Shown: positions 41,845-42,291, counted from the stretch's first letter. The stretch is 64,000 nt of DNA from Candidatus Saccharimonadia bacterium (GCA_963717365.1 OY970327.1:395599-459598); one strand, 5' to 3'. Notes: generated by a model not told the origin, from the sequence alone. Numbers and translations: made by a program.

Positions 41845-42291
41845 TTAAATTCCTGCTTTCTGTCTGATTTTACTAACATCATTTCCAATTACTACTTCTC
41901 TAATGCTTCCTAAGACTTCTGATGCAAACATATACTCCATATCCGACATTCTTGCCTGATTGGCTTCTAAACACGCTTGCAACGGAATCTCTGTACATAT
42001 AACTTTTCCAAGCTCAGCAGCTCTCTTTATTTGGCAAATTACCGGATATGCGAAACGCGGTAAAATCAAGCCGTCCGGAGTTGCACCGGCAATAACCAGA
42101 GCCTTTGCTCGTCGGATTAATCTCTCTTCTACATCAAGCTCTCTACCGATATGCATGCCTAACCCTAGGAAGTTGTAGTCTGCATTTTCAAGCATGTTCC
42201 ACCAACGAGATTCAAGATTATGATCCGATATACGGGCACAAGGCTCAATTGCATTAAAGGCTATCGGTATTCTTTCAATACTTACTCTCAT
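41845..42291 (-). CDS. orphan hypothetical protein embedded between atpG and atpD
   Basis: 148-aa ORF. Its ATG overlaps the atpG stop by 4 nt and its stop lies 2 nt before the atpD ATG. It is visibly more AT-rich than its neighbours. Confidence 0.6.

Follow-up and report, generated by a model that had tools for sequence, protein, structure and literature searches.

The atp operon shows one of the most conserved gene orders in bacteria. Among the additional genes described in such operons, AtpI/AtpZ (ATPase_gene1, PF09527) and the AtpQ/AtpR of N-type ATPase operons are small non-core open reading frames (ORFs) co-expressed with the subunit genes; they encode membrane proteins of recognisable families and stand at the Fo end. 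Known inhibitors of F1, i.e., the C-terminal domain of epsilon, the alpha-proteobacterial zeta, the mitochondrial IF1 and the cyanobacterial AtpTheta, are small, soluble and lineage-specific, and three of them, zeta, IF1 and AtpTheta, are mostly helical proteins whose genes lie outside the atp operon. Here, we analysed a 64-kb stretch of DNA from a bacterium placed in Saccharibacteria (TM7), referred to below as the window, in which an extra ORF, named orfX (41845..42291, minus strand), lies between atpG and atpD, the genes of the gamma and beta subunits of F1. orfX is a genuine protein-coding gene that kept its position and belongs to a tiny, taxonomically restricted family of three sequences. 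Across Saccharimonadia, the F1 junctions (alpha|gamma, gamma|beta and beta|epsilon) recurrently host small coupled genes that are unrelated between lineages and mostly orphans. The searchable literature, which was not exhaustively covered, held no account of an atpG-atpD ORF in Saccharibacteria, nor of F1-junction ORFs. As far as we can tell, the tiny orfX family and the position-specific recurrence in a highly conserved operon are new, whereas an orphan accessory gene in an operon is already a known phenomenon.

Results and discussion

orfX is a coding gene held in place between atpG and atpD

The coding sequence of orfX starts with ATG, ends with TAA and encodes a soluble protein of 148 aa, with a mass of 16.6 kDa and an isoelectric point of 6.1; it was established from the ORF list, its homologs and the ratio of nonsynonymous to synonymous substitutions (dN/dS, or omega). 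A word-indexed search of 5.8 billion protein clusters returned the orfX protein itself as sole match, and an exhaustive HMMER search of 1.84 billion representatives matched two other proteins, P0002 (150 aa, 45% identity to orfX, E = 6e-29) and P0003 (144 aa, 48% identity, E = 1e-28). A search with the family profile yielded no members beyond the same three proteins, a DNA-pattern scan of metagenome contigs revealed no further homologs, and each of the three sequences forms a singleton cluster found on one contig. Their alignment holds 36 invariant positions, which cluster near the N-terminus in F-x-A-x-(D/E)-P-C-A-R-x-S-x3-L-E-S-x-W and near the C-terminus in V-V-I-G-x-D; C18, R20, E27, K96, E101, C107, E119 and D138 are invariant.

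P0003 is encoded at the atp locus L081, where the first 187 residues of the atpD product are 92.5% identical to those of the window. There, it overlaps the C-terminal end of atpG (…QIAEIVGGAEAVSE, followed by the stop) through ATGA, and atpD through TAATG. Between the window and L081, a dN of 0.47 and a dS of 1.63 were obtained for orfX, i.e., a ratio of 0.29 that is approximate at a dS so close to saturation, versus a dN of 0.055, a dS of 1.46 and a ratio of 0.04 for atpD. The direction of this result, namely purifying selection on a gene evolving about 8 times faster than that of the beta subunit, is robust. This dN/dS comparison had been put forward in an original prediction on this DNA, and it speaks for constraint. 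Identity between the two copies was 0.63, 0.70 and 0.41 at the first, second and third codon positions, and the annotated frame contains no stop in either copy, against 2-14 stops in all other frames. P0002 is encoded on a 1-kb contig, where its gene shares 4 nt with the upstream gene and 1 nt with the downstream one. Besides, the order atpA-atpG-orfX-atpD, with an identical orfX protein, was found again on a separate 3.5-kb Logan contig from another assembly; because this contig is independent, the layout is not an assembly artefact. The sequencing runs ERR12037361 and SRR22356415 contain the locus. No orfX paralogs were found within the window.

Both ends of orfX were read directly and are arranged as the original prediction had described. 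The TGA stop of atpG (42290-42288) and the ATG of orfX (42291-42289) have 4 nt in common, forming an ATGA overlap (42288..42291, minus strand); this is a termination-reinitiation coupling geometry, and the same overlap is found at L081. At the other end, the TAA of orfX (41847-41845) is followed by the 2-nt spacer TA and the ATG of atpD (41842-41840), the whole reading TAATAATG (41840..41847, minus strand). A Shine-Dalgarno-like GAGG (42302..42305, minus strand), putatively functional, is located within the last codons of atpG, 10 nt ahead of the orfX start codon, and a second upstream GGAG is present in this start region (42308-42311, minus strand). A similar AGGA (41851..41854, minus strand), which would serve atpD, is found within the last codons of orfX, 8 nt ahead of the atpD start codon. 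Between atpG and atpD, consensus scans of the coding strand detected no terminator-like site, and the best sigma-70-like promoter candidate, TTGACC-18-TATACT with TG (47177..47206, minus strand, 10/12 matches), sits just upstream of the first operon gene, in a region where the number of such sites is not above chance. Such geometry implies co-transcription and translational coupling, in agreement with what had been expected. According to this scheme, orfX would be transcribed as part of the atp operon, and ribosomes ending atpG would reinitiate at the ATGA overlap with the aid of the upstream GAGG. Translation of orfX would also feed atpD, whose ATG follows the orfX stop by 2 nt and whose Shine-Dalgarno sequence is embedded in orfX. 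The product would be a soluble beta/alpha domain of ~16.6 kDa, accessory rather than core.

Small coupled ORFs recur at the F1 junctions of Saccharimonadia

Related operons were sampled from 80 species-representative genomes and from 80 metagenome contigs recovered with atpG, i.e., 160 Saccharimonadia atp loci, and a junction was considered as expanded when its gap reached 150 nt or more. Expanded junctions accounted for 20% of loci at A|G, 48% at G|D and 21% at D|C, versus 4% at B|E, 1% at F|H and 0% at both E|F and H|A. Such gaps are no simple spacers: in 64/84 of them for the genome set and in 40/46 for the metagenome set, 80% or more of the length was covered by a single sense-strand ORF, while an antisense ORF did so in 7/84 and 4/46, respectively. 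These gap ORFs begin at or over the upstream stop and end at or over the downstream start, with 1- or 4-nt overlaps being dominant, and tandem gap ORFs (two to four) are chained by 4-nt overlaps. Loci with junction ORFs are exemplified by L010:6861-7993, L003:6867-7669 and L087:1689-2670.

The gap occupants are nearly all BLASTP singletons, and a Pfam domain was assigned to 7 of the 148 gap ORFs, i.e., one NUDIX, one 23S_rRNA_IVP and five Transgly_assoc. The NUDIX hydrolase (L003:7223-7669) and the 23S-rRNA-intervening-sequence four-helix-bundle protein (L017:5760-6170) are encoded between atpG and atpD, and membrane proteins of the Transgly_assoc (GlsB/YeaQ) type between atpD and atpC (L005:3894-4181 and L006:8481-8744). 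Orthologous pairs of gap ORFs gave omega values of 0.16-0.38 and diverge many times faster than atpD and atpG. This is illustrated by one pair with 62% identity where atpD and atpG are 98% and 96% identical, and by a second one with 33% identity where atpG is 89% identical. orfX behaves like the other gap ORFs in this respect, being under purifying selection and diverging faster than its neighbours. In terms of sequence, tblastn and phmmer revealed no similarity between orfX and other gamma|beta gap ORFs, and the best gap-ORF match of the family hidden Markov model (HMM) had an E-value of 0.18. With hhalign, orfX was aligned to L010:7085-7507 over 73 columns with E = 1.3e-3 and a probability of 18%, values comparable to those of a control match; this ORF is itself an orphan, whose sole relative is 95% identical. 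Besides, an iterated HMM search uncovered a recurrent family of six gamma|beta occupants (L013:7036-7308, L031:6863-7189, L042:2338-2607, L046:7100-7396, L009:6887-7180 and L055:6861-7085), which are acidic, ~75-110 aa long and without Pfam domain, with a conserved C-terminal helix '...A.R.ALG(L/I)..LP'.

orfX is absent from related operons, with a putative remnant in the nearest relative

No orfX homolog was detected in the 160 related atp operons (0/160) with tblastn, phmmer or the family HMM. In the nearest relative, L001, whose atpG and atpD are 83% and 95% identical to those of the window, the atpG-atpD spacer is only 85 nt long (L001:6871-6955). This spacer aligns over its full length to the final 92 nt of orfX; the alignment contains indels and in-frame stops, and its score of 6 was reached by 0.1% of 2,000 random window segments (null, -12.7 +/- 5.1). 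Because the aligned portion of orfX codes for the VVIGxD strand, which is invariant, and for a helix, the simplest reading is that L001 has probably deleted most of orfX and kept a piece carrying the ribosome-binding region of atpD. A degenerate remnant in L001 would therefore point to an older presence followed by loss rather than to a recent arrival. The spacer also holds a mini-ORF of 16 codons (MKEKLNLELSTIGGEQ, followed by the stop), which ends as TAATG at the atpD start.

Whatever the origin of this spacer, an ATP synthase with a near-identical beta subunit appears to work in L001 without orfX, which would thus be dispensable there. Since a relative with a 95%-identical beta keeps only a ~85-nt remnant, orfX is probably not a core or indispensable component of the ATP synthase. 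This weighs against the accessory or regulatory subunit envisaged in the original prediction, whereas an extra lineage-restricted gene in the F1 block, its other element, was confirmed. The comparison of relatives called for in that prediction found orfX in its slot at L081 and none in the 160 operons, with a putative remnant in L001.

Base composition of orfX and predicted fold of its product

The G+C content of orfX is 41.2%, with a value of 0.33 at third codon positions (GC3), versus 51.3% for both atpG and atpD (GC3 of 0.52-0.54). The AT-richness reported earlier is thus real as a local contrast. At the scale of the genome, it is not unusual: the mean G+C of the window is 43.6%, orfX ranks at the 28th percentile among windows of 447 nt, and atpH has a GC3 of 0.34, like orfX. 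The compositional outliers are the GC-rich F1 genes, not orfX, and their high G+C fits strongly expressed genes with biased codons. As the composition of orfX is genome-typical, it is silent on a foreign origin. The later insertion deduced from AT-richness finds no support in this genome-typical G+C, in the flanks, where no repeats were detected, in the phage and plasmid searches, which gave no match, or in the L001 remnant.

As originally stated, orfX contains no hydrophobic or transmembrane segment, the maximum 19-residue Kyte-Doolittle mean being 1.08 and the grand average of hydropathy 0.07, and no nuclease or homing-endonuclease motif was matched in Pfam or NCBIfam. Indeed, orfX had no match to any family of these two databases at E <= 10, and none to PHROGs; the family profile found no sequence match among PDB chains even at E <= 10. 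PADLOC gave no match for orfX and weak isolated ones for its relatives, i.e., PD-Lambda-5_A for P0003 only (E = 7e-4) and PDC-S20 for P0002 only (E = 0.03). These were treated as chance matches, as they concern different families and neither is common to the other members.

AlphaFold2 models built from the three-sequence alignment had a predicted local distance difference test score (pLDDT) of 60 and a predicted template-modelling score (pTM) of 0.61 for orfX, and of 67 and 0.67 for P0003. Both models show an identical order of alternating strands and helices, and both leave the conserved N-terminal ~25 residues unmodelled. The comparison of predicted structures suggested in the original prediction brought no relative to light: Foldseek returned nothing at E <= 0.001, either against PDB with both models or against BFVD with the orfX model. 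The best matches, 3fni, 3hly, SsuE, DNPH1, NDT and TIR, had E-values of 0.05-0.4 and query-normalised template-modelling (TM) scores <= 0.46. According to these models, the orfX product is predicted to be a soluble alternating beta/alpha domain of the flavodoxin-like class, which is a description and not a family assignment. A ligand-binding or catalytic site, formed by the invariant Cys, Arg, Glu and Asp, might be located at the C-terminal edge of the sheet.

Two candidate resemblances were examined. The 'PCAR.S' following strand 1 evoked the low-molecular-weight phosphatase/ArsC group, which was rejected: in the segment A14-I-E-P-C-A-R20, the position of the nucleophilic Cys of C-X5-R-(S/T) is occupied by an invariant Ala. 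orfX had no match to Pfam LMWPc, and hhalign with approximate sequences gave E = 0.65 for a YwlE-like protein and E = 0.004 for a pI258 ArsC-like protein, the latter over 23 columns only. In the case of NDT, whose catalytic Glu lies in the helix after strand 3, inspection by eye revealed no Glu at the expected position of orfX (LPRFAYPVI).

Weighing the explanations

We rank first, and hold with modest confidence to be the probable explanation, that orfX is a non-core accessory passenger using the strongly expressed F1 block as an expression platform, within a lineage-wide slot. It is ranked first because the occupants of this slot are unrelated, some have domains clearly unconnected with ATPases, and many operons leave it unfilled. 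Several points weigh against it. A pure expression platform predicts that the Fo/stator junctions would be used as well, whereas they almost never are, and the restriction to F1 junctions favours an F1-linked role, or else some other constraint on these junctions. What we read as a remnant in L001 may alternatively represent an ancestral spacer taken up by orfX at its 3' end, and because atpD places the window, L081 and L001 at roughly equal distances from one another, phylogeny does not polarise gain versus loss. The gamma|beta slot is shown for two of the three family members (window and L081), P0002 displaying only a like overlap geometry. Besides, expression of orfX is inferred from geometry alone, and the omega of 0.29 is approximate with a dS of ~1.6. 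With a family of only three members and models of moderate confidence (pLDDT 60-67), in which the most conserved N-terminal 25 residues are unmodelled, no activity can be assigned.

The restriction to F1 junctions is best accommodated by the main competing explanation, which we regard as possible but unlikely. It proposes that orfX and the other F1-junction ORFs are lineage-specific, fast-evolving F1 modulators or assembly factors associating co-translationally with gamma or beta, for instance so that ATP hydrolysis is kept under control in organisms whose enzyme is thought to operate in reverse. The confinement of extra ORFs to A|G, G|D and D|C (20%, 48% and 21%, versus 0-4% elsewhere), the overlap coupling that ties their synthesis to that of F1 subunits and the purifying selection acting on them are all in line with this proposal, as is the small, soluble and lineage-specific nature of the known F1 inhibitors. 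Yet the occupants are non-homologous between lineages, some are of housekeeping type (NUDIX, the 23S-rRNA-IVP four-helix bundle and the GlsB/YeaQ-type membrane protein), the G|D junction is unoccupied in about half of the operons, and orfX is degraded in L001 despite beta and gamma identities of 95% and 83%. The original prediction had also raised a selfish or toxin-like gene, and more generally a defence or mobile gene could have been recently inserted into an essential operon; this we consider very improbable, and the selfish or toxin-like nature could not be substantiated, as orfX had neither a partner gene nor a consistent match to defence or toxin models. The very narrow distribution (three sequences), a GC3 below that of the F1 genes and the isolated weak PADLOC matches of P0003 and P0002 would fit such an origin. 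These matches, however, are to different families and are not common to the family, G+C is genome-typical, no flanking direct or inverted repeats beyond chance were detected, no nuclease or homing-endonuclease domain is present, and the only neighbours are atpG and atpD, leaving no partner gene. No PHROG match was obtained, and tblastn searches of 50,697 phage and 72,556 plasmid records returned none either. Moreover, since the position is conserved in a genome diverged to a dS of ~1.5, orfX is not a recent arrival. Least credible of all, in our opinion, is a frame open only to relay ribosomes from atpG to atpD, with a functionless peptide. F1-junction gaps are indeed nearly always open end to end in the sense direction, with overlaps at both ends, and most occupants are orphans of biased, hydrophilic composition. 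Such a role is at odds with the omega of ~0.3 of orfX, its 36 invariant residues in conserved motifs and its best-conserved second codon positions, with a consistently predicted globular fold, and with the omega of 0.16-0.34 of other gap-ORF pairs with unsaturated dS.

A broader and speculative idea, to which we give only limited credence, is that orfX and the unrelated F1-junction ORFs form an unrecognised class of F1 modulators or assembly factors that tune hydrolysis or proton pumping in episymbionts devoid of a respiratory chain; alternatively, these junctions would be a birthplace of new genes kept open by coupling. A whole class of ultra-small episymbionts appears to tolerate, or exploit, extra genes at the F1 junctions of the operon. 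These junctions offer a defined and easily searched place to study how new or orphan genes reach fixation on expression borrowed from an essential operon. They also bear on whether Saccharibacteria possess lineage-specific regulators for an ATPase whose main working direction may be the reverse one. In this regard, orfX provides a clean test case, being real, position-conserved, fast-evolving, probably lost in one relative, small, soluble and suited to biochemistry.

The atp operon and other features of the window

The whole atp operon (39993..47168) is carried on the minus strand throughout, and every gene but orfX matched Pfam above the curated cut-off. From its head, it comprises an AtpI-like gene (Pfam ATPase_gene1, 46920-47168), atpB (46120-46923), atpE (45834-46064), atpF (45153-45689), atpH (44736-45137), atpA (43157-44689), atpG (F1 gamma, 289 aa, 42288..43157; PF00231, E = 1e-89), orfX, atpD (F1 beta, 472 aa, 40424..41842; PF00006, PF02874 and PF22919) and atpC (39993-40424). 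The order is therefore AtpI-like-atpB-E-F-H-A-G-[orfX]-D-C, i.e., the canonical one with a single extra ORF of 148 aa between atpG and atpD, as had been noticed, and all eight canonical F-type subunits are assigned to genes other than orfX. The atpH product (delta/OSCP) has merely 133 aa and covers positions 45-171 of the 172 of Pfam OSCP; therefore, this subunit seems to lack the N-terminal part of a canonical delta, or to have only a very short one. Downstream of the operon, an ORF of 366 aa (38311-39411, minus strand) has a match to the cadmium carbonic anhydrase repeat PF18484 that is below the Pfam cut-off (E = 5e-5, 23.5 bits versus 29.2).

Elsewhere in the window, a group I intron (Rfam RF00028, 96 bits; 54965-55270, plus strand) splits the anticodon loop of a tRNA gene missed by ARAGORN. 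The 5' exon begins at 54967 and the 3' exon ends in ...GCCA at 55270; joining 54998 to 55228 results in a 75-nt tRNA-Thr(UGU), the anticodon depending on the exact splice site. An ORF for a large serine recombinase of 499 aa (55208-56707, minus strand) overlaps the 3' exon on the opposite strand, suggestive of an element integrated at this tRNA, and smpB (54033-54491) lies just upstream of the split gene. A ribosomal protein L10 leader (RF00557, 59.9 bits; 1445-1578, plus strand) is an ordinary cis-regulatory element.

Comparison with known systems

Like AtpI/AtpZ and AtpQ/AtpR, orfX is a small non-core ORF expected to be co-expressed with the operon. It differs from them in being soluble, in standing between gamma and beta rather than at the Fo end, and in having no recognisable family; with no transmembrane helix and no Pfam match, it does not belong to these groups, and the AtpI-like gene of this operon is a separate ORF (46920-47168). 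Nor does orfX belong with the core F-type subunits, as judged from Pfam and NCBIfam. It is also distinct from the homing endonucleases (LAGLIDADG, GIY-YIG, HNH), with no match in Pfam, NCBIfam or PHROG and none in phage genomes, and from toxin-antitoxin and defence systems, no model being matched family-wide and no cognate partner adjoining it. The F1 inhibitors are similarly small, soluble, lineage-restricted and tied to F1, and would fit the restriction to F1 junctions; they show no similarity to orfX in Pfam or NCBIfam at E up to 10, and orfX is predicted to be alpha/beta. Flavodoxin-like and Rossmann-like domains (FMN reductases, NDT/DNPH1, TIR) resemble the orfX model in their alternating beta-alpha order and size of ~145 residues, but all matches have E >= 0.05 and query-normalised TM scores <= 0.46, with no PDB sequence match. 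The closest parallel in behaviour is provided by orphan genes and operon hitch-hikers, which combine, as orfX does, a narrow range, fast divergence, a relaxed but real purifying selection and borrowed expression. The difference lies in the position-specific recurrence observed here: throughout a class of bacteria, one conserved operon carries unrelated occupants at the same three junctions.
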